Shown here piece by piece: positions 50,279 to 58,803 of a stretch of DNA of 64,000 nt. The notes beneath the pieces were generated by a model. It worked only from the letters and a program-made list of their open reading frames with translations. It searched no databases and was not told where the DNA came from. The stretch's first letter is position 1, and each line of letters starts with the position of its first letter. Source of the stretch: a phage. The DNA is taken from sequence record PZ386951.1; one strand, written 5' to 3'. The position numbers and the translations under genes are program-made.

Positions 50279-50494
50279 TTACCCCAATTTAACCATACAA
50301 TCGCCGTATTTCCACTTAGAAATAGACTTTTCACCATTAGAATAATAAACTTCGAGTTTAGCACGATTATTTTTAATTTGAATAACCTTTGCTGTCATCA
50401 AAGTTCCATACCCATAATAAACTGCAACTTCATCACCTACATATACCGCGCTTCCGCGGTAATCATGAATATAGTCATTTCCTTCGAGCATCAT
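50279..50494 (-). CDS. hypothetical protein (71 aa)
   Basis: Minus ORF, 4-nt overlap with nrdC. Confidence 0.5.
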   Translation of the reverse strand: MMLEGNDYIHDYRGSAVYVGDEVAVYYGYGTLMTAKVIQIKNNRAKLEVYYSNGEKSISKWKYGDCMVKLG

Positions 50495-50754
50495 TTAAAA
50501 TATTCTCGCAGTTGGTCAAATCCACCAATATGACTTCCATCAGGAGCAAATACTTGAGGCATCGTCAAGCCGATTTGAGTATCACGACCTAGTTTAGTCA
50601 GAAGCTCAGCAATTTTCTCATCATCAAAAACACCTTTTTCCGGCATAATGTTGATAAATTCAAACGGCTGTTTCTTCACGGTCAAAAGACGTTTTGCATT
50701 ATCACAATACACACATTTGTGGATGTTGCTATCATAACCATATACTTTAAACAT
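50491..50754 (-). CDS. nrdC: NrdC thioredoxin/glutaredoxin
   Basis: 87-aa ORF with CVYC active site, same length as T4 NrdC. Confidence 0.85.
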   Translation of the reverse strand: MFKVYGYDSNIHKCVYCDNAKRLLTVKKQPFEFINIMPEKGVFDDEKIAELLTKLGRDTQIGLTMPQVFAPDGSHIGGFDQLREYFK

Positions 50755-50755
50755 A

Positions 50756-50996
50756 TTATTCCTTAATTCCTAGTACTTGTTTAAAAGTCTCGTCGTAATC
50801 AAGACTTTGGCCCGTTTGTTCTTTATGTTTGTATATAATATCACTTACTTCTGATAGCATATTTTTATATGAACGAGTTAAAGCAGATTTAAGCACGCTG
50901 TATCTATCAGGAAATTTACCATGTTCATTATAATAAGCTATTACTAATTCACGGACTGCCTTTTCAGCAGTCTCCATATATTCTTTACGCTTGGTC
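50756..50996 (-). CDS. hypothetical protein (about 80 aa)
   Basis: Start at internal ATG ([13 protein letters not shown]...); track ORF extended upstream overlaps the next gene. Confidence 0.5.
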
Positions 50997-51281
50997 ATTT
51001 TCTTCTCGGTCAAATCGGTGTTTACAATGGCGACATTTATAACGAAGATTATTAGTCTGCCAATGGACCAATTGCACCTGTTCAGTTCCACATTCAGGGC
51101 AATTAGGAACGTTTTTAGAAGCCCTTTCGCGACGCTTAACCATAGCCATAATGGCATCCCATGCTGGAGGTTTAAAATCTAAATCGTCAGTAACTAGCAG
51201 TCCTTTATCAAACCCAGCGCATGGAGTCCATTCAGGAAAATCTGAAGCTTCGGCAATATCTTCTAATAAACGCTTTTTCAT
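50985..51281 (-). CDS. zinc-finger protein (98 aa)
   Basis: CPECG...CRHCKH four-Cys pattern. Confidence 0.55.
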
Positions 51282-52204
51282 TTCAGTATCTCAATAGCAT
51301 CACGTAAACCATTTGCTTTGGCGGTTAAAGCCTTAAGAACTTTAGTATGCTCTTCAATCTGTTTTTCAACTTCAATCAAACGAGCATTGAGATATTCGCG
51401 TTCTTCTTTCATAGTATCATTCCCATGATTGGATTTTGGTGTAGGTTTAAATTCACTAGGGTCCTTTAATTTAATAACAAATTTAGTTTCAAACAGTGAA
51501 AGACCATAATTCGTATTATCATCAAAGGATTTGACTACATCCATATCAGATAATAACACGCGTAAATTATAAGCCAAAGAACTAATAGTTTCATTGTGTT
51601 TATTAGCTTCGCGTGGTTTCATATACGGAAGATTTTTATATATCTCGTGCGGAGCACAAACAATAATTGACAATTCAAATTGCCCATTCTGGGACGATGG
51701 AGTGAATTTAGCCGTAACCCAGTCTTTTACATTCACATTAATAGTACGGTTATCACCATGACAAAACAGTCTACGAGAATGCTTAAAAAGCATATTCACG
51801 TTATTATTGAATTCGTGTGAAAATTCACTAGCAAATTTTTCTTTACTATCTTTAGAAAACCATTCTTCTAAATAAGTTCTTTTCACGTCGTTAATAATAT
51901 TAAATGTAACAACACTAGCATTTGATACATTAGTCTCAATGTAGCTTGGATACATAAATTTTTTAACATTATTAACAGCTATCACAGAAGATAGTAATCG
52001 GGAACGTTTGAACCACTCTAGCAAAGAACCAAGAGAATGTGAATATGCATTTTGTGTATCTTTACAAATATGGTTTTCCCATCCAATATAGTCTAAAAAA
52101 TCACGAAGAATATTATTGATTACTGCTCTGTGTCCAATCTGATAATTACGGTGTTTAGTAATAAGACTGTCAAAATAATCAATATAATGTTTACGAGTTT
52201 TCAT
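51278..52204 (-). CDS. hypothetical protein, tandem-paralog family member A, C-terminal coiled coil
   Basis: 308 aa; N-terminus MKTRKHYIDYFDSLI; C-terminal heptad-like [42 protein letters not shown]. Confidence 0.6.
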   Translation of the reverse strand: MKTRKHYIDYFDSLITKHRNYQIGHRAVINNILRDFLDYIGWENHICKDTQNAYSHSLGSLLEWFKRSRLLSSVIAVNNVKKFMYPSYIETNVSNASVVTFNIINDVKRTYLEEWFSKDSKEKFASEFSHEFNNNVNMLFKHSRRLFCHGDNRTINVNVKDWVTAKFTPSSQNGQFELSIIVCAPHEIYKNLPYMKPREANKHNETISSLAYNLRVLLSDMDVVKSFDDNTNYGLSLFETKFVIKLKDPSEFKPTPKSNHGNDTMKEEREYLNARLIEVEKQIEEHTKVLKALTAKANGLRDAIEILK

Positions 52205-52256
52205 GTTCTTCTCACTTGGTTAATGATTTATACTCCGAGCCATCCTTGGCTTTAAA

Positions 52257-53258
52257 TTACTTAATTAACTGTAAAGCTTGTTCAAGACGATCAAGACGAT
52301 TAACGGATTCTTCCCAAATCTTTTTAGCCTGCTCATATTCTTTCTGCGCTTTATTAGAAATTTCTAGAGCTTCTTTATAAGCTTTTTCTAGTGCAATAAC
52401 TTCTGGACGAATTTCTATCGGTTCAGGTGAATCGTCAAGACATTCCATTAGTTCCTCAAGGGTAGTTTCTTCTTTAGGAGTATTCACAATTTCATCACAT
52501 TTTTGTTGATAAATTTCTTTATCAGTAGGTGAGTACGCGCACTTTACTTCACGAAGACTAATTACAATTTTATATCCTTCCCAACCGCATATATTCTTAA
52601 AAGGATAAGTATGAATATTTTCTACTGTTTCCATACAAAGTAATGCGGTCTCTAATTGACGAGTTATAGTGCTAGCAATTGAGAAAAATTTATTAATATT
52701 CTTTTGGTTAGTTTCTGGTGTAAAAAATCCATAATTCACAAAAATAGATACTTTATTTTTATCAAGTTCATATTCTTTTATGATAATCATATCAGAAGCC
52801 AAAGGATGAATTTGACGATAATCGCCATAACATAATTTAGAAGCTGATTTTAGAATCTGTCCTTTGAAAAGTCTGAAATTACTAATCCAACGACGAGTAA
52901 AAATATTCTCAGGGTCTTCTTTATTATTAAGATGATAAGAATTAACATCACCGAACCAATTATATCCTACTACATCTTTGGTTCGTTTAATTTCTTTCCC
53001 AAAATTACCAAGAATATCCCGATTAACCAAATATGAAAGAAGACGAGACTCTTTAAAGGTTTTCTTGATAAGATCTTTATCTACACGGCTAGAAATTTTA
53101 CGAATTTCATGAATAAATTTAGTAGAAGAAACAATACTTGCATCAACACTATTGAGCCATTGATTGATAATAGAAAGAACGATATTTTGACCAAACATCG
53201 GTATAGCTTTATCATCAATAACGCTATTGAATGATTTGATATATTCGTTACGAGTCAT
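52257..53258 (-). CDS. hypothetical protein, tandem-paralog family member B
   Basis: About 333 aa from MTRNEYIKSFNSVI (GAGGAG RBS); C-terminal coiled coil ...EKAYKEALEISNKAQKEYEQAKKIWEESVNRLDRLEQALQLIK. Confidence 0.6.
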   Translation of the reverse strand: MTRNEYIKSFNSVIDDKAIPMFGQNIVLSIINQWLNSVDASIVSSTKFIHEIRKISSRVDKDLIKKTFKESRLLSYLVNRDILGNFGKEIKRTKDVVGYNWFGDVNSYHLNNKEDPENIFTRRWISNFRLFKGQILKSASKLCYGDYRQIHPLASDMIIIKEYELDKNKVSIFVNYGFFTPETNQKNINKFFSIASTITRQLETALLCMETVENIHTYPFKNICGWEGYKIVISLREVKCAYSPTDKEIYQQKCDEIVNTPKEETTLEELMECLDDSPEPIEIRPEVIALEKAYKEALEISNKAQKEYEQAKKIWEESVNRLDRLEQALQLIK

Positions 53259-53286
53259 ATTAATCTCCTCAGTAGAAAGTAAGAAC

Positions 53287-53316
53287 ATTATACCACATCC
53301 TTGTGGCAAAGTAAAC
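53287..53316 (-). promoter_or_regulatory. T4-type early promoter inside the paralog array
   Basis: CATTATACCA at 53287-53295, GTAAAC at 53311-53316. Confidence 0.55.
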
Positions 53317-54344
53317 TAGTTCAGTGCATTTAGTGCATTGTTCAGTTTAGAACGTTGCTTTGTCAGATTTTGAACCCTTGACTGAGCTTGTTCTAACACC
53401 TTTTCAGCTTCTAGCACTTCATTAGTTGCTTTAACGAGTTCATCATCTACTGCCTTAAGAGACTTCTCAATCGCGTCAGCGTGCCATTTTTCTACAGGTT
53501 TAAAATTTGAATTTTCAGTAGGAAGAAAACTCACTTTATTAAGTTTACATGCATCTATATTGCTTGAGCTATACATCCAAAATTTAGGATCGTTTGATAA
53601 GTAATTGGATAAATTTAAATTTAAGTTATCTTGTACTTCCTGCTTTTTCTCTTGCGGGACTTCGTCCTTTCTCAAAAAATCGTATTTAAATGAAACGATC
53701 ATATCAAGTTCATATGATGTTGTATCTAATTTAAATCGTTCAAAACGAGGTAAAATCTTAGATTGAACAGCAGCAACAACATCCATATACTTAAATGCTT
53801 CTGTCAACTGTGATTTAAGGCATTCACAAATTGAAAGAGAATTTTTTGTATTAGGTTTAAAACTAATTCGCGCAGTTCTATTATTTTCTTTTAACGGTCT
53901 TACTTCCATCTGAAGAGTATAACCATCAAATTTCAGATTCTTTAAGTTAATATCAGAGCCTTTTAATCGACTAGAAGTAGACAAAATTTGCTTTAATTGT
54001 TTACGGAATAGAGCAATAAATCTCCATTCAATACGATAATGATTTGGATTGAAAAATCCAGATGATAAATCGACCTTACTCTGACCAACACCTTGAACAA
54101 ATAGAGGATTTTTATAATCAATAGTTTTACAGAAATCGGTGAGCTGCTCACGAGCAGTCATTTGCGTAATATACCCTGCTTTACTAAAATTACGCACCCA
54201 TTCACTGCTATTCGTATACTTAAAGTGATGAATAACACGATTAACTTTATCAGGGTCTAAATTATTTTCACACAAAAATGTCATAACATCACGAGTATAA
54301 CTGGCATTACGAACCATATCTTCAATTTGAGAACGAGTTTTCAT
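53316..54344 (-). CDS. hypothetical protein, tandem-paralog family member C
   Basis: 342 aa; N-terminus MKTRSQIEDMV; C-terminal coiled coil ...LEAEKVLEQAQSRVQNLTKQRSKLNNALNALN. Confidence 0.6.
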   Translation of the reverse strand: MKTRSQIEDMVRNASYTRDVMTFLCENNLDPDKVNRVIHHFKYTNSSEWVRNFSKAGYITQMTAREQLTDFCKTIDYKNPLFVQGVGQSKVDLSSGFFNPNHYRIEWRFIALFRKQLKQILSTSSRLKGSDINLKNLKFDGYTLQMEVRPLKENNRTARISFKPNTKNSLSICECLKSQLTEAFKYMDVVAAVQSKILPRFERFKLDTTSYELDMIVSFKYDFLRKDEVPQEKKQEVQDNLNLNLSNYLSNDPKFWMYSSSNIDACKLNKVSFLPTENSNFKPVEKWHADAIEKSLKAVDDELVKATNEVLEAEKVLEQAQSRVQNLTKQRSKLNNALNALN

Positions 54345-54352
54345 AGTGTTCC

Positions 54353-55240
54353 TTAAGATTTAAGTAAATCAACAATTTTAATTAACTTTTCACGCTCAGA
54401 TTTAGCTTTACTACTCAATCCAGATAGTCTGAAAATTTCATCGTCATACTGTTGAATAGAAATATTCAGCTCTTCAATTTGCTTATTAAAATAATCAATT
54501 TGTTCAGAATGTTTTTCGTTACTACGAACTGGTACATGTTTTGTAGGTAATTTAGATGAACTGGATTCATCCGGGCGATAAATTAAAATACAACTTGAAC
54601 CAATCGGGCATTTTGCACCAGACGAATATTCTAATGTTCCGGCTTCTTTTAAAACTTCAAAAGCTAAACAGAGATGATGTCCCATATTAACATAATCTGT
54701 AGAGCGAGCTCTGATATAATAATCATCGCCGCGAATACTAAATTTAAAGCATTTAAGGTCTTCTGTATTATTGGTCTTAAAAATCATTTGTTTATCTAGA
54801 CCTTTAGCTAATCGAGCGCCTAATGCTAATAATCGTCGTTGATTTTCCCACAAATCTGCGATCATTTGGTCAAATGATAATTTCGGCATTAGTCGACCGT
54901 AAAGATCATAGCCTTTATTATAATTGCGAAGGATTTCACTCGCATTAATACGAGACAACGCTCCAATTTTATTAAGGGCTTTCATAATGCGATTAGATAA
55001 ACCCATTCCAGACCCGTTTGTTCGTTGTAAATGTTTATCTAATCCAAACCCAATATCAACTTTAAATTTATCTAAAATTTCAGCATGAACATCTCTGTCA
55101 ATAACATTCAAATCCAAAGTTGGGTTAAATCTATGAAAAAATTTATCTGGCTCTCCACGACGAAGTACAGTCCATTCATTCAATTTTTTATTAACTAAAG
55201 ATTTAATTACTGCATTGACATTATTAATTACGACTGACAT
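54353..55240 (-). CDS. hypothetical protein, tandem-paralog family member D
   Basis: About 295 aa from ATG 55238-55240 (GAGGAAAAT RBS; track start TTG); C-terminal coiled coil ...QIEELNISIQQYDDEIFRLSGLSSKAKSEREKLIKIVDLLKS. Confidence 0.55.
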   Translation of the reverse strand: MSVVINNVNAVIKSLVNKKLNEWTVLRRGEPDKFFHRFNPTLDLNVIDRDVHAEILDKFKVDIGFGLDKHLQRTNGSGMGLSNRIMKALNKIGALSRINASEILRNYNKGYDLYGRLMPKLSFDQMIADLWENQRRLLALGARLAKGLDKQMIFKTNNTEDLKCFKFSIRGDDYYIRARSTDYVNMGHHLCLAFEVLKEAGTLEYSSGAKCPIGSSCILIYRPDESSSSKLPTKHVPVRSNEKHSEQIDYFNKQIEELNISIQQYDDEIFRLSGLSSKAKSEREKLIKIVDLLKS

Positions 55241-55247
55241 ATTTTCC

Positions 55248-55655
55248 TCACTCAATTTCAATTTTACTAAATATACAGAATAAGATGGAACAGACTATAT
55301 AAGCACCACACACAGATTGAACTAATACCATTCCAAAGAACCAAATAATATTATCAAACAATGTCTGTTTTACGTCGAAAGGACGTAAACTTACAGTAAT
55401 ATTATCACCTTTTTCTATTGAAGAATACATCTCTGGGGAAATATATTCACTAAATCTATAACCGTCTTTGAGTTCATATACAGCAATAAATGATAAACTA
55501 GACCCCTTTCCTTGAGTTCCTGTAATGGTATTAACTACAGTAACATCATAATCTTTATAATGCATATAATCATTAATTGCGTAATAACCATATGCAATTA
55601 CTATACATAAACAACATATCAATAAATTCAATCTTTTAATTATCAACCGTTTCAT
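55248..55655 (-). CDS. membrane protein (135 aa), N- and C-terminal TM segments
   Basis: LLICCLCIVIAYGYYAI and IIWFFGMVLVQSVCGAYIVCSILFCIF hydrophobic segments. Confidence 0.55.
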   Translation of the reverse strand: MKRLIIKRLNLLICCLCIVIAYGYYAINDYMHYKDYDVTVVNTITGTQGKGSSLSFIAVYELKDGYRFSEYISPEMYSSIEKGDNITVSLRPFDVKQTLFDNIIWFFGMVLVQSVCGAYIVCSILFCIFSKIEIE

Positions 55656-55710
55656 AATAATCTCAATTAAAAGGGCTTAGAACCATTATACCATCCTTGG
55701 TATAAAGCGG

Positions 55711-56238
55711 TTATGCGAGTACCGTCTTTAACCGTTCTTCAAACTTCCGAAGAGTATTTTGGCGTTCAGCTCTTTGCTTTTTGTAAGTTTCAATACGCTC
55801 TGAAATGAGAGTGTATCGTTCATTTACTGATTCTTTCATAAAATCAGGAATTTCACGAGAAGTTTTAATCTCGTCAAATTTATCAATAACAGCTTGCTCT
55901 TCAGCAATTAAGTTATCATACATCAAAATATCTTTCTTGATGAACTCAATATCTTCTTGAGTTACACGAGATAATTTAGATGCTTTATCCTTTTTGTACT
56001 GTTCGTTAGTATCACGAGACCAGTGTAATGTACGATTTTTATTCGTATTCTTGTAAATTTCTACAATACCAATCTCATCGATAATAACGATCCAATTCCA
56101 ACGGGATTTGTAAATTTGTCCTCCATCAACAGTGATTTCACCTCCGATTGAGATGTCATTAAAGAACTTGCTTTGTGCTTCTGATTTAAATTTACCATCG
56201 TTGTAATTTACCAGGTTGAAAATATCTTTAGCGTTCAT
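55711..56238 (-). CDS. hypothetical protein (175 aa) with C-terminal coiled coil
   Basis: ATG with GGAGG RBS downstream of early promoter. Confidence 0.6.
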   Translation of the reverse strand: MNAKDIFNLVNYNDGKFKSEAQSKFFNDISIGGEITVDGGQIYKSRWNWIVIIDEIGIVEIYKNTNKNRTLHWSRDTNEQYKKDKASKLSRVTQEDIEFIKKDILMYDNLIAEEQAVIDKFDEIKTSREIPDFMKESVNERYTLISERIETYKKQRAERQNTLRKFEERLKTVLA

Positions 56239-56263
56239 TTTGTGTTCCTCCGTAGTTGATAGT

Positions 56264-56294
56264 TGTATAGTACCACAGAGGAACAGTCTTGTAA
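56264..56294 (-). promoter_or_regulatory. T4-type early promoter
   Basis: TATAGTACCA at 56264-56273, GTAAAC at 56289-56294. Confidence 0.6.
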
Positions 56295-56298
56295 ACCA

Positions 56299-56613
56299 CT
56301 AAAAGAAACTTCTTTCACAATTTTTTCCACTGAACCATGCGCTCACTGCTTTCTTAGTCTCAGGAGCGGTGTTATCCATAAACCATTCAAAGGCAGCCTT
56401 TTTATGATTCTGGAGGGCTTCTCGGGCTTTAATCTGCTCACGGTCTATTAACACTAACATATGAGCCTTTCTTGTCACCAAGGGCTTCTTATGATTTTTT
56501 GAATACTCCCAATCATTTGTCCATCGCATCGTTGTTGCGAATTGAAATACAGCTTCTTTAATTTTAGTTTCGTAAATTTCACGAGCCTTTGAGTATAACA
56601 TCACTACCTCCAT
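56299..56613 (-). CDS. hypothetical protein (104 aa)
   Basis: Minus ORF with ATG start. Confidence 0.5.
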   Translation of the reverse strand: MEVVMLYSKAREIYETKIKEAVFQFATTMRWTNDWEYSKNHKKPLVTRKAHMLVLIDREQIKAREALQNHKKAAFEWFMDNTAPETKKAVSAWFSGKNCERSFF

Positions 56614-56703: not shown

Positions 56704-57672
56704 TTATTTCAGAAGAGTAACCTCAGCAATTTCTTCCCAACCGTTTTTGTCGGTCATAATAAAGTCAGCAAGATAAAGTGCAGTACGCAGTGAAACATTG
56801 CGTAAACGATTAACATTGACTTTCATCCATGATAATGCTTTATAAGTTTCTTCATCAGAAAGACCGCGCTTTTGCATCATGTCAGTTGAAAGAATAACAT
56901 CTTCAACCCTGACCATAATTTCTTCATTAGTGTGAACACCCAAATCCAAATAAACTGAGCGGGACACTAATGCTTGTAAATGTGGAGCAAGTTTAGTACC
57001 ACGGTCTAATTCGCGGTCAATGTCAACGTTTGTGATAAAAACAATCGTTCCTTTAAATTCAAACTCACGCTCAATGCCTTTTTCTTCTAAGTAAGAAGAT
57101 GCAGTGCTCCAGCAGACTTTACGGGTCTCTCCGGTGTCCAGAGCAGCTTTCAGAAGATTAAGAATGTCCATATCAGAGAAAACATCCACATCATCAATCA
57201 AAAGGACAGAATTCTCTTCACGATTATTCCAGAGCTGTTCATAAAGACCGATACCAGAGATTTTACCGTTAATGCTTTTATACTCAATGTATCCAATATC
57301 ATTTGCTTTATTTAAAGCTTTATCTAAAGAATACGTTTTACCAATACCCGCCGCACCAGAGATAATTAATGAACGAATGTTTCCGTTAATAATACCATTC
57401 GTCATCATTCCCATAACATTAAATCTTTTATTAATGCGGGTTTTCATATCTTCATATGATTCTTTAACTTCTTCAACTTTTACACCATCATATGAAATGT
57501 CTGATTTGTAAACCCAAACACCACGACGTTTACCGTCAATTTCAACAAAAACTTTACCATCTCCTTGTGCATCTACCGGAGCATTATCTGGGAACCATTC
57601 GCCTAAGAGCTCAAAAGTTCCAGAGATTTCTTTACCGAAGTAGATACCCTTATTGATAGTTACAGTTTTCAT
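56704..57672 (-). CDS. AAA+/P-loop ATPase (DnaC/IstB-like Walker motifs)
   Basis: About 322 aa from MKTVTINKG (GGAGAA RBS); Walker A GAAGIGKT, Walker B LLIDDVD, sensor-like FITNVD. Confidence 0.65.
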   Translation of the reverse strand: MKTVTINKGIYFGKEISGTFELLGEWFPDNAPVDAQGDGKVFVEIDGKRRGVWVYKSDISYDGVKVEEVKESYEDMKTRINKRFNVMGMMTNGIINGNIRSLIISGAAGIGKTYSLDKALNKANDIGYIEYKSINGKISGIGLYEQLWNNREENSVLLIDDVDVFSDMDILNLLKAALDTGETRKVCWSTASSYLEEKGIEREFEFKGTIVFITNVDIDRELDRGTKLAPHLQALVSRSVYLDLGVHTNEEIMVRVEDVILSTDMMQKRGLSDEETYKALSWMKVNVNRLRNVSLRTALYLADFIMTDKNGWEEIAEVTLLK

Positions 57673-57710
57673 TTTTATTCTCCAAATCTGTATCAGTAGT
57701 TGATAGTTGT

Positions 57711-57740
57711 ATAGTACCATAAAGCTTTATGCTTGTAAAC
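57711..57740 (-). promoter_or_regulatory. T4-type early promoter upstream of the ATPase gene
   Basis: ATAGTACCA at 57711-57719, GTAAAC at 57735-57740. Confidence 0.6.
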
Positions 57741-57770: not shown

Positions 57771-57786
57771 GGAGCCCGAAGGCTCC
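57771..57786 (-). terminator. GC stem-loop (UUCG loop) 3' of the nucleotidyltransferase gene
   Basis: GGAGCC CGAA GGCTCC. Confidence 0.5.
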
Positions 57787-57789
57787 CTA

Positions 57790-58803
57790 TCATTTATAAT
57801 AACTTCGGTGGTTTTCAAGATAGACCTTCTCAAGGAAGTCATCCCAGAAACTCATGTCTACTTTTTGCTGCATACCGTTCTTAGAAGCTTCAGTAGATGC
57901 TGCTTCTACTTGATCGACCACATCTTCCAAAAACTCTTGAACCGTTTTAAATGGATGTTTACCCAACTTCACGTCGAGAATAAATGGAGCATCTTGGAGT
58001 GGATAAACTAAGTCGCCAGTTTTGTAAATTTCCAATAGTTGGAGTCCACCACGGCAAGCATGACTCAGAGCTTTCCAGTCAATACCTTCATTGGCTTCGG
58101 CCTTACGAGCACGTTCACCATATTCAGCATCTAATTTGTTCAGTGACTGCTTAAGCTCAATAAGAGAAAGCGTTGTCTGATATTTACGACCCAACACAGT
58201 GTAGAACGTTTGTGGGCCTGTTTTCTCATGATTATGGAACACCCATTCACAGAATTCGTTTTCTGGAAGACGATGCTTAATATCTTCAACTTTAGTGCGA
58301 CGCTGCTTAATGGAACCGTCTTCTTGGTAATCAACCCATTGCTCGGGGATTTGATTAACTACTTTCAATACATCACGTAATGCAGCCAAACGAGAACCCT
58401 TGACACCGTATTTAGAAGCTTGCTTGCGGACATATCCTAAATAGGATTTCATGTTAGTCGTATAAAAACGAGAACGGTTGTCTTGAATAAACTTCCACAC
58501 GTCAGGCAAATCAGATTTAACAACTAGTTCAGGTGGAGTGTGGAGCATATCCAATGCTACAGTTTCACCATCTGCTGCTAATTTAAAGAAATACTTAAGA
58601 CTATACAATTCGTGGTCAATATCATCTTTAGTGTTTTTAGATGATGTGTTGTTGGTATTTTTACTCATATGCTCTTTAACATTTCCGATAAGAATATCGC
58701 GAGCAGGAGGAATAAAGATTTCTTTAAAATCTACATCAGATTCTGGAGTAGAAGTTCCATAAAGATGACTACCAAAATAGCTTTTCATTACTGTTTTCAT
58801 CAT
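57790..58803 (-). CDS. Pol-beta-superfamily nucleotidyltransferase-like protein
   Basis: 337 aa; N-terminal FGSHLYGTSTPESDVDF fits the GS-x(9-13)-DxD NTase signature, with downstream acidic candidates (DIDHE, ALDMLH). Confidence 0.6.
   Translation of the reverse strand: MMKTVMKSYFGSHLYGTSTPESDVDFKEIFIPPARDILIGNVKEHMSKNTNNTSSKNTKDDIDHELYSLKYFFKLAADGETVALDMLHTPPELVVKSDLPDVWKFIQDNRSRFYTTNMKSYLGYVRKQASKYGVKGSRLAALRDVLKVVNQIPEQWVDYQEDGSIKQRRTKVEDIKHRLPENEFCEWVFHNHEKTGPQTFYTVLGRKYQTTLSLIELKQSLNKLDAEYGERARKAEANEGIDWKALSHACRGGLQLLEIYKTGDLVYPLQDAPFILDVKLGKHPFKTVQEFLEDVVDQVEAASTEASKNGMQQKVDMSFWDDFLEKVYLENHRSYYK

Follow-up and report, generated by a model that had tools for sequence, protein, structure and literature searches.

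Profile comparisons place nrdC.3–nrdC.6 of T4-like phages in one diverged superfamily with a putative counter-defence function

T4 is the best-studied phage and about half of its genes are functionally obscure. Four consecutive minus-strand genes of a T4-like phage raise the question of whether such genes, when they lie side by side, are related to one another and what they do. The window, by which we mean the whole 64,000-nucleotide stretch analysed (record PZ386951.1), comes from a Tequatrovirus and has ~96% nucleotide identity to T4 over nrdC–nrdC.8. An earlier note, made from the letters alone, had described the four genes as tandem paralogs, each ending in a coiled coil, and had guessed that they might be the T4 nrdC.x ORFs.

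Identity and family assignment of the four genes

Four consecutive minus-strand ORFs of 295–342 aa were found where the earlier note had placed them, and its guess was correct, as identity to T4 names them nrdC.3–nrdC.6. These genes, with a promoter-like site and a neighbouring gene, are as follows:

51278..52204, minus strand: nrdC.3, 308 aa, N-terminus MKTRKHYIDYF; assigned to the superfamily, with nrdC.4 as closest paralog
52257..53258, minus strand: nrdC.4, 333 aa from ATG, N-terminus MTRNEYIKSF; assigned to the superfamily
53287..53315, minus strand: promoter-like site, TTTACT-17-TATAAT with a TG upstream, immediately 5' to nrdC.4; consensus scan only
53316..54344, minus strand: nrdC.5, 342 aa, N-terminus MKTRSQIEDMV; assigned member with a published anti-Dsr1 function
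54353..55240, minus strand: nrdC.6, 295 aa from ATG; the most divergent assigned member
55711..56238, minus strand: nrdC.8, 175 aa; neighbouring gene without homology to the array

The window proteins have 92%, 98% and 95% identity to T4 NrdC.3, NrdC.4 and NrdC.5, respectively, while the longest ORF of nrdC.6 opens at a TTG start at 55261. All four genes lie on the strand bearing the T4 early genes, and the site at 53287..53315 is a candidate early promoter within the array. The earlier note also listed a fifth, downstream coiled-coil protein. This is nrdC.8, which does have a helical tail but is unrelated to the family (hhalign E 0.03–0.2 against the superfamily) and was therefore ruled out as a member; 173 of its 175 residues (99%) are the same as in Bas37_0203.

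Many GenBank records name the products of these genes thioredoxin or glutaredoxin, but no Thioredoxin or Glutaredoxin Pfam match was found in any of the four and the CxxC active-site motif is absent from all four translations. This label is carried over from the locus name 'nrdC.N'. With membership defined as a full-length HMM match above the gathering score of 30 bits, nrdC.5 belongs to Pfam DUF7235 (PF23882; 397 bits, E 8e-119, residues 1–342) and is the ortholog of T4 NrdC.5. In the same scan nrdC.3, nrdC.4 and nrdC.6 had no match to the DUF7235 model and are therefore outside that family at family level; relative to T4 NrdC.5 they appear to be remote homologs of the same architecture that fall below the model. 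PHROG 1435 is common to nrdC.3 (E 2e-100) and nrdC.4 (E 1.6e-168), and nrdC.6 matches PHROG 2257 (E 1.2e-151). Among precomputed assignments, PF26897 (Phage_T4_Y04OP) is present on 64/64 nrdC.4 homologs and also on a protein with an nrdC.3-like C-terminal half, and PF26899 (Phage_T4_Y05B) on 105 nrdC.6 homologs, including 98%-identical ones. Searches of PDB sequences, NCBIfam and Pfam gave nothing informative on the array, and profiles of nrdC.5 and nrdC.6 matched no PDB chain at E ≤1 except for a chance ribosomal protein (E 0.06). The superfamily is without a matching solved fold or known domain.

Homology and shared architecture

Pairwise BLASTP proved insufficient as a test of homology among the four, as only a single weak match between nrdC.3 and nrdC.4 was visible (24% over 168 aa, E 0.02). 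Profile–profile comparison of the families using hhalign and enriched alignments was, in contrast, significant for nrdC.3–nrdC.4 (probability 98.3%, E 2.4e-14), nrdC.4–nrdC.5 (93.5%, E 2.3e-7) and nrdC.3–nrdC.5 (92.4%, E 5e-7). When the coiled coil was removed the first two pairs gave 98% (E 6e-14) and 92% (E 5e-7), while nrdC.3–nrdC.5 fell to 44% (E 2.4e-4). With the first, shallow alignments nrdC.4–nrdC.5 had reached E 2.8e-4 and nrdC.6 had no link to any family, and the gain came only after orthologs from other genera were added.

The position of nrdC.6 needs separate consideration, since against each single family of nrdC.3, nrdC.4 and nrdC.5 it gave no significant hhalign match (E 0.006–0.04, probability 1–6%), and a Foldseek search of BFVD with its predicted structure returned nrdC.6-type proteins from many T4-like phages but none of nrdC.3, nrdC.4 or nrdC.5. 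Both results would fit an unrelated family with a converged architecture that was recruited to the same slot, making the array three paralogs and an analog. However, a profile of nrdC.6 with its Karamvirus relatives matched one of nrdC.3, nrdC.4, nrdC.5, Winklervirus and Jiaodavirus sequences at 96.6% probability (E 5.5e-10, nrdC.6 residues 81–212) and nrdC.6 by itself matched the latter at E 9e-9, whereas the controls gave E 0.06 with one side of the alignment reversed and a minimum of E 0.19 in 20 column shuffles. Karamvirus and Jiaodavirus profiles also align with one another (E 1.3e-4 over 238 colinear columns), the secondary structure elements follow the same order and the motifs align, and in CC31 an nrdC.6-like gene fills the slot directly upstream of nrdC.2 that elsewhere holds nrdC.3 or nrdC.4. 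We therefore regard convergence as improbable, and these profiles place nrdC.6 in the group at superfamily level only.

As an independent check, a core HMM made solely from window and database sequences found the single-copy genes of Jiaodavirus, Winklervirus, Kagamiyamavirus and Karamvirus (E 3e-12 to 4e-5). Core profile–profile similarity extends beyond the coiled coil and was measured alongside negative controls, and by these comparisons nrdC.3–nrdC.6 are classed as strongly diverged paralogs of one superfamily of T4-like phages (Tevenvirinae). The genes themselves were already known, and uniting them in one superfamily is modestly new. DNA repeats between the copies amount to only 12 nt, at the nrdC.3 and nrdC.5 start codons, which indicates that the duplications are ancient and rules out a recent one.

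A common architecture is found in the four proteins. The N-terminal part is helical and is followed by a core of β-hairpin, helix and β-hairpin, then by a linker that is disordered and changes rapidly, and an amphipathic helix lies at the C-terminus. The resemblance between N-termini reported previously holds throughout the superfamily as a conserved motif, K-T-R-x-x-Y-I-x-x-F, and the core carries the motifs F[KR][KR]S[RG]xL...A...L..F, N...IL....RL..GD.R and L..AL..MDVV. AlphaFold2 models of nrdC.5 (pLDDT 50 from a 25-sequence alignment, and thus poor) and nrdC.6 (pLDDT 78, usable) have the same order of elements, and these coincide in the sequence alignment. Comparison of the nrdC.5 model with BFVD was unreliable (TM ~0.2), although its top match, a 346-aa protein of Serratia phage CBH8, is a true relative according to the later HMM. 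The C-terminal helices, all on the minus strand, are given below with a heptad score that is home-made and crude and was ranked over the 66 ORFs of the window:

51281..51421, minus strand: nrdC.3, amphipathic heptad-like helix, ~residues 262–308; heptad score 0.78 at 270–304, third of 66 ORFs
52260..52406, minus strand: nrdC.4, helix, ~residues 285–333, from joint alignment with the nrdC.3 and nrdC.5 helices; heptad regularity only moderate
53322..53495, minus strand: nrdC.5, long helix, residues 284–341, seven continuous heptads; AlphaFold2 pLDDT 80–91; heptad score 0.88, first of 66 ORFs
54359..54517, minus strand: nrdC.6, helix-break-helix, residues 242–271 and 277–294; AlphaFold2 pLDDT 84–92; DDEIxRLxGL motif

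These helices are among the best-conserved blocks inside each family. A terminal motif, L-x-x-A-[IL]-x-x-L-[KN], is common to nrdC.3, nrdC.4 and nrdC.5, and the DDEIxRLxGL motif of nrdC.6 is kept in its Mosigvirus, Gaprivervirus and Karamvirus relatives. The heptad-like tails proposed from the letters are predicted to be helices in all four proteins, with high heptad regularity in nrdC.5 and nrdC.3, but this is moderate and less regular in nrdC.4 and nrdC.6. From the models and heptad patterns, the C-terminal helix would be expected to form a coiled coil.

Distribution, selection and dispensability

A profile search of 1.84 billion proteins found 23 representatives with an E value of at most 1e-3, all named members being from T4-like phages. 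Remote members fall below threshold at that database size. Nine coliphage genomes that were fetched contain 2–4 copies and four sampled phages of other genera contain one each, with possibly a single copy in ACG-C40, and both Morganella phage Rgz1 and Klebsiella phage Matisse lack the genes. Related phages therefore have between zero and four copies, in combinations that include nrdC.3 with nrdC.6, nrdC.3 with nrdC.5 and nrdC.6, and nrdC.4 with nrdC.5 and nrdC.6. Together with the profile–profile homology, this variation supports the tandem duplication and diversification put forward in the earlier note. Natural deletion and fusion variants also exist, and nrdC.3 occurs as two allele classes, of at least 90% versus roughly 60% identity or less.

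Gene-wide dN/dS was 0.10–0.30, which shows purifying selection, though relaxed compared with the flanks, and indicates that the genes are functional. Arms-race selection, which had been suggested for the array, is consistent with the allele replacement, the variable linker and the copy-number changes, but gene-wide dN/dS gave no sign of positive selection. Transposon insertions in T4 occupy 91/94, 97/101, 82/82 and 79/82 TA sites of nrdC.3, nrdC.4, nrdC.5 and nrdC.6, respectively, and all four genes are dispensable on laboratory hosts (K-12).

Probable counter-defence function and its alternatives

Complementation with T4 nrdC.5 brings back plating on an MG1655 host that carries the ECOR17 dsr1 gene (Srikant et al. 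2022, eLife, PMC9391042). This published anti-Dsr1 activity is genetic and comes from a single complementation experiment, and the sequence of the window NrdC.5 suggests that it shares the activity. The array also lies within what we take to be an anti-defence island, because in addition to nrdC.5 the segment holds nrdC.1, which inhibits Septu, gp49.2, which inhibits OLD, and nrdC.8, whose ortholog Bas37_0203 inhibits Druantia type III and gave a knockout-validated HIDEN-SEQ log2FC of -5.80 on isolate CFE303. Like the array genes, gp49.2, nrdC.1 and nrdC.8/Bas37_0203 are on the same strand of the island, are non-essential on K-12 and encode proteins without recognisable domains; unlike them, they are much smaller (80–175 aa) and unrelated in sequence (by hhalign for nrdC.8). 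The host-interaction or anti-defence role foreseen for the array is therefore borne out for T4 nrdC.5 against Dsr1, with a neighbourhood that agrees, while for nrdC.3, nrdC.4 and nrdC.6 we infer it from a paralog that overcomes Dsr1, which makes them good candidates for immune evasion. The Bas37 orthologs of nrdC.3–nrdC.6 had no significant HIDEN-SEQ fitness effect on uropathogenic CFT073, CFE299 and CFE303. Taken as a whole, the explanation that we favour, with moderate confidence, is that these are old Tevenvirinae paralogs in a counter-defence island whose most likely function is counter-defence.

By such a mechanism NrdC.5 would neutralise the sirtuin immune protein Dsr1, and NrdC.3, NrdC.4 and NrdC.6 would act in the same way on further immune proteins of the host, or on other variants of the Dsr1/Avs7 type. 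The array proteins may oligomerise through the coiled coil and would inhibit the host protein by direct contact, through stoichiometric binding that precedes its triggering. The proposed binding is modelled by analogy on DSAD1, a protein of SPbeta-like phages that binds directly to the sirtuin DSR2 and so inhibits it. In both cases a phage protein would disarm a sirtuin of the host defence, although host, phage family and target all differ (DSR2, versus Dsr1 for NrdC.5). DSR2–DSAD1 complexes are deposited in the PDB. A DSAD1-like inhibitor recognisable by sequence was rejected on the PDB chain search given above, with profiles of nrdC.5 and nrdC.6 and in a set that presumably includes DSAD1. 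The T-even internal proteins offer a second likeness, as they retain a common module, diverge elsewhere, and have different members that counter GmrSD, an ECOR17 system and McrBC. However, the internal proteins go into the phage head and have only an N-terminal targeting signal in common, whereas the nrdC.3–nrdC.6 proteins are encoded on the strand of the early genes, are far larger, have a conserved core and a coiled coil in common, and carry no capsid-targeting sequence.

A different function, which we consider rather unlikely, is that the four serve host takeover or housekeeping as accessory proteins whose conserved core has a single common activity, for instance binding the same host or phage partner, and that the anti-Dsr1 effect is indirect. 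The core motifs are kept across all paralogs and genera and would suit one non-immune function equally well, and both the purifying dN/dS and the absence of a conditional phenotype for the orthologs on the three clinical isolates are in line with this. Such an activity is, however, harder to reconcile with the dispensability of all four genes on K-12, with copy numbers that fall to zero among related phages, with surrounding genes that are dedicated inhibitors, and with the rescue of plating by NrdC.5 alone, specifically on the Dsr1 host. We likewise give little credence to the four proteins forming one hetero-oligomeric complex in place of independent inhibitors, since, despite adjoining genes on the same strand and C-terminal helices that are similar and well conserved per family, relatives have one, two or three members in differing combinations, several genera have a single copy, and NrdC.5 expressed alone complements a deletion clone, which may still retain other paralogs.

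Within the counter-defence explanation, a more tentative possibility is that the superfamily is a modular inhibitor scaffold, in which a conserved core and an oligomerisation helix are combined with an N-terminal segment and a linker that evolve fast and determine the target. Each paralog might then disarm a different immune sensor, one option being the Avs7-type family that includes Dsr1, and the expansion in coliphages from one to up to four copies might track the diversity of E. coli sensors.

Remote paralogy to the anti-Dsr1 gene nrdC.5 makes the orphan ORFs nrdC.3, nrdC.4 and nrdC.6 specific and cheaply testable counter-defence candidates, and the same applies to the single-copy orphans in T4-like phages of Klebsiella, Enterobacter, Serratia, Erwinia, Salmonella and probably Acinetobacter. 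The core motifs and variable linker are now defined and can steer mutagenesis on how NrdC.5 blocks Dsr1. The picture of the pin–nrdC.11 segment as an anti-defence island is also extended, which is relevant to host-range engineering of therapeutic T-even phages.

Gene content of the nrdC region

The phage is a Tequatrovirus, and positions 50400-56300 of the window match many T-even phages at 96-97% identity, with 96% identity to T4 (AF158101 48127-53947). The open reading frames confirmed the coordinates, lengths and N-terminal strings which the earlier note had given for four tandem genes, and its suggestion that these might be T4 nrdC.x ORFs was correct, the four being nrdC.3 to nrdC.6. They are T4 ORFs annotated long ago, one of which has a function already published.

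Genes of the nrdC region (window positions)
50491-50754, minus strand, nrdC
minus strand, nrdC.1
50985-51281, minus strand, nrdC.2, zinc ribbon
51278-52204, minus strand, nrdC.3, 308 aa
52257-53258, minus strand, nrdC.4, 333 aa
53316-54344, minus strand, nrdC.5, 342 aa
54353-55240, minus strand, nrdC.6, 295 aa
minus strand, nrdC.7, membrane protein
55711-56238, minus strand, nrdC.8, 175 aa
minus strand, nrdC.9
56704-57720, minus strand, nrdC.10, AAA-like (weak AAA/STAND-NTPase matches)
57790-58803, minus strand, nrdC.11, RlaP-type nucleotidyltransferase

A strong terminator-like hairpin lies between nrdC.10 and nrdC.11 (57771-57786), and nrdC.11 is spread across the Straboviridae (1505 phage records), a far wider distribution than that of the nrdC.3-nrdC.6 array. 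The array is divided between PHROG 1435 (nrdC.3 and nrdC.4), 2351 (nrdC.5) and 2257 (nrdC.6), and in Pfam between PF26897 'Phage_T4_Y04OP' (nrdC.3/nrdC.4), DUF7235 (nrdC.5) and PF26899 'Phage_T4_Y05B' (nrdC.6). Many phage GenBank records label homologs of nrdC.3-nrdC.11 as 'thioredoxin', for example 'thioredoxin (x9)'; this product name has been carried over from locus labels of the type nrdC.N, and thioredoxin and glutaredoxin domains are absent from all four array proteins.

Relationship and architecture of the array proteins

Pairwise BLASTP among the four proteins returned nothing except a weak match between NrdC.3 and NrdC.4 (24% over 168 aa, E 0.02). Family alignments were built from protein-search homologs together with orthologs from RB69, JS09, ESCO47, VR25, P479, EcWhh-1 and VIPECOOM03, and using hhalign we detected clear relationships between nrdC.3 and nrdC.4 (probability 98.3%, E 2.4e-14), nrdC.3 and nrdC.5 (92.4%, E 5e-7), and nrdC.4 and nrdC.5 (93.5%, E 2.3e-7). 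After removal of the coiled coil, the nrdC.3-nrdC.4 (98%, E 6e-14) and nrdC.4-nrdC.5 (92%, E 5e-7) matches held, while nrdC.3-nrdC.5 fell to 44% (E 2.4e-4). There are no DNA repeats common to the paralogs, which argues that the duplications are old.

Against each of these single families nrdC.6 gave no significant match (E 0.006-0.04), as might be seen with a convergent analog, a reading that we consider quite improbable in view of its superfamily-level match. Other Tevenvirinae genera carry, at the same genome position, one gene whose product has 315-350 aa and a coiled coil at its C-terminus, and we included those of Gelderlandvirus CGG4-1, Jiaodavirus FRZ284 and Metamorpho, Winklervirus Vettismorki, Kagamiyamavirus EcS1, and Karamvirus myPSH1140, CC31 and fGh-Ecl01. 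In profile comparisons these single-copy genes bridge the families, linking Winklervirus to nrdC.5 (E 3e-9) and Jiaodavirus (E 1.5e-8), Jiaodavirus to nrdC.4 (E 2e-5), and Karamvirus to nrdC.6 (E 7e-6) and Jiaodavirus (E 1.3e-4, 238 colinear columns). When two superfamily profiles were built independently, nrdC.6 plus Karamvirus matched nrdC.3, nrdC.4 and nrdC.5 plus Winklervirus and Jiaodavirus at 96.6% (E 5.5e-10; nrdC.6 residues 81-212, nrdC.4 residues 60-224), and nrdC.6 alone matched the latter profile with E 9e-9; reversing one side gave E 0.06 and the best of 20 column shuffles E 0.19. Likewise, a core HMM made from window and database sequences only detected the single-copy genes of the other genera with E 3e-12 to 4e-5, values that refer to that small sequence set. 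On the strength of the superfamily-profile match, its controls and the core-HMM recognition, we accept nrdC.3, nrdC.4, nrdC.5 and nrdC.6 as one superfamily by sequence profile, with nrdC.6 as its outlier. The earlier note's claim that the four proteins are related was therefore upheld, for nrdC.6 at superfamily level only. Membership of nrdC.8 was considered and rejected.

The AlphaFold2 model of NrdC.6 (pLDDT 78) has helices up to residue 151, a core of β165-170, β173-178, α186-199, β204-209 and β217-221, a disordered linker (227-241) and terminal helices at 242-271 and 277-294. AlphaFold2 modelled NrdC.5 poorly (pLDDT 50), though with its elements in the same order and with one long helix predicted confidently (284-341); the predicted elements of both proteins fall together in the joint sequence alignment. 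This alignment has an N-terminal block, K-T-R-x-x-Y-I-x-x-F, the further blocks F[KR][KR]S[RG]xL...A...L..F, N...IL....RL..GD.R and L..AL..MDVV, and a terminal block, L-x-x-A-[IL]-x-x-L-[KN]. Within families the core blocks and C-terminal helix are best conserved, and the N-terminal 20-60 residues and linker most variable.

Two further observations were made among the relatives. A 336-aa nrdC.6-like gene of Enterobacter phage myPSH1140 (MG999954.1 45926-46933; comparison sequence L011 1124-2134) is missing from the GenBank annotation and present in the RefSeq copy, and its CC31 ortholog lies directly upstream of nrdC.2, the nrdC.3/nrdC.4 slot in coliphages. Immediately upstream of the single-copy member lies a conserved gene of ~260 aa, without a coiled coil and with 65-74% identity across four genera (comparison sequences L009 13418-14200, Gelderlandvirus; L010 14144-14932, Jiaodavirus; L011 2836-3612, Karamvirus; L014 3717-4490, Winklervirus), which is not at the corresponding position in the window.

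Distribution, diverged alleles and irregular copies

Searching 1.84 billion representative proteins with a profile gave just 23 representatives within a threshold of E 1e-3, and all named members belong to T4-like phages. Foldseek comparison of the NrdC.6 model with BFVD returned proteins of 300-375 aa (E 2.5e-6 to 1.7e-3) from T4-like phages of Enterobacter, Pectobacterium, Acinetobacter, Yersinia, Erwinia and Citrobacter. There are four copies in T4, the window phage, Bas37, Bas38, Bas41 and Bas44, three in RB69 and JS09 (nrdC.3, nrdC.5, nrdC.6) and in VR25, P479 and EcWhh-1 (nrdC.4, nrdC.5, nrdC.6), two in ESCO47, one in the Gelderlandvirus, Jiaodavirus, Winklervirus, Kagamiyamavirus and Karamvirus phages sampled, and none in Morganella phage Rgz1 or Klebsiella phage Matisse; that the array proteins form an obligate hetero-oligomer is, in our estimate, very unlikely. 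By tblastn, the number of phage records with a match was 742 for nrdC.6, 654 for nrdC.3, 554 for nrdC.4 and 532 for nrdC.5.

The nrdC.3 gene falls into two deeply diverged allele classes: 138 records reach at least 90% identity and 514 lie no higher than about 61%, the lower class including Tequatrovirus alleles (~59-62%) and Mosigvirus orthologs (~54%). Between the window and VIPECOOM03, dS is ~1.0 in nrdC.3 and 0.13 in the adjoining nrdC.4, a difference which indicates, at sequence level, allele replacement by recombination. The nrdC.3 alleles of the window (51278-52204) and comparison sequence L005 (6001-6930) share ~60% amino acid identity, in Tequatroviruses otherwise 92-97% identical. 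The array genes are under purifying but relaxed selection, with gene-wide dN/dS of 0.10-0.30 compared with 0-0.09 for nrdC, nrdC.10 and nrdC.11.

In the T4 reference, nrdC.6 (AF158101; L001 7940-8767; 275 aa) has a 1-nt deletion relative to window 54353-55240 (GCTGAATATT to GCTG-ATATT), which shifts the frame so that the coiled coil is lost from the annotated protein, although the downstream DNA still encodes it. The gene is full length (295-296 aa) in other T4 records, among them that of the T4 in HIDEN-SEQ, a transposon-insertion fitness screen, and the deletion arose either by sequencing error or by mutation of a laboratory strain. RB69p097 'nrdC.5' (L002 6973-7875) has an annotated C-terminus out of frame with the JS09 ortholog and, after several linker-region indels, a coiled coil intact in another frame, the result of a frameshift in the gene or of an error in the sequence. 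In metagenomic T4-like genomes (protein P0120; L019 3570-4900, L020 1931-3261) an nrdC.5 fragment (residues ~147 to ~270) is naturally fused, with the junction out of register, to the last 60% of an nrdC.3-type gene; nrdC.4 has been lost by deletion, and upstream there remains an ORF of 115 aa that stands apart. Some Tequatroviruses keep the C-terminal coiled-coil fragment alone of nrdC.3, nrdC.6 or nrdC.4 (ACG-C40, NC_019399.1 47512-47724; Pinarejo, PP925831.1 50018-50158; Manna, PP987310.1 50891-51139), which suggests internal array deletions ending inside genes.

Counter-defence roles, published and proposed

An evolved T4 deletion clone no longer infected ECOR17; infection was restored by deletion of dsr1 from this host, cloned dsr1 made MG1655 resistant to this clone, and expression of T4 nrdC.5 restored plating (Srikant et al., eLife 2022). 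The SIR2 protein Dsr1 carries a sensor of the Avs7 type, which recognises the major capsid protein in other phages. NrdC.5 of the window differs from that of T4 by 5%, mostly in the linker, and probably acts against Dsr1 in the same way.

The HIDEN-SEQ preprint found T4 nrdC.3-nrdC.6 non-essential on K-12, and attributed inhibition of Septu to nrdC.1 and of Druantia III to bas37_0203; gp49.2, encoded a few genes downstream, inhibits OLD. By Bas37 annotation, gene order and alignment, bas37_0203 is the nrdC.8 ortholog (173/175 residues identical to the window protein), an orthology which the preprint does not name in describing this Druantia type III inhibitor. With these three inhibitors nearby, the array lies within an anti-defence island.

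For none of the nrdC.3-nrdC.6 orthologs of Bas37 did the HIDEN-SEQ screen detect a significant effect on the hosts CFT073, CFE299 and CFE303, which is expected if each paralog is needed against one particular system only, and fits equally well with no immune role. A conserved core with a shared non-immune function seems unlikely to us, and we infer that NrdC.3, NrdC.4 and NrdC.6 counter other immune proteins. For such inhibitors, the C-terminal helix would drive oligomerisation, inhibition may be by direct stoichiometric binding, by analogy with DSAD1 and DSR2, and specificity would be set by the variable N-terminus and linker. The observation in the earlier note was real, and its interpretation largely right.

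No statement uniting nrdC.3-nrdC.6 with the Tevenvirinae single-copy orphans was found in the literature searched, and the present analysis adds this union, in a single superfamily for which motifs and a linker that varies have been defined. For T4, nrdC.3, nrdC.4 and nrdC.6 become three concrete new counter-defence candidates, of an unsurprising kind.
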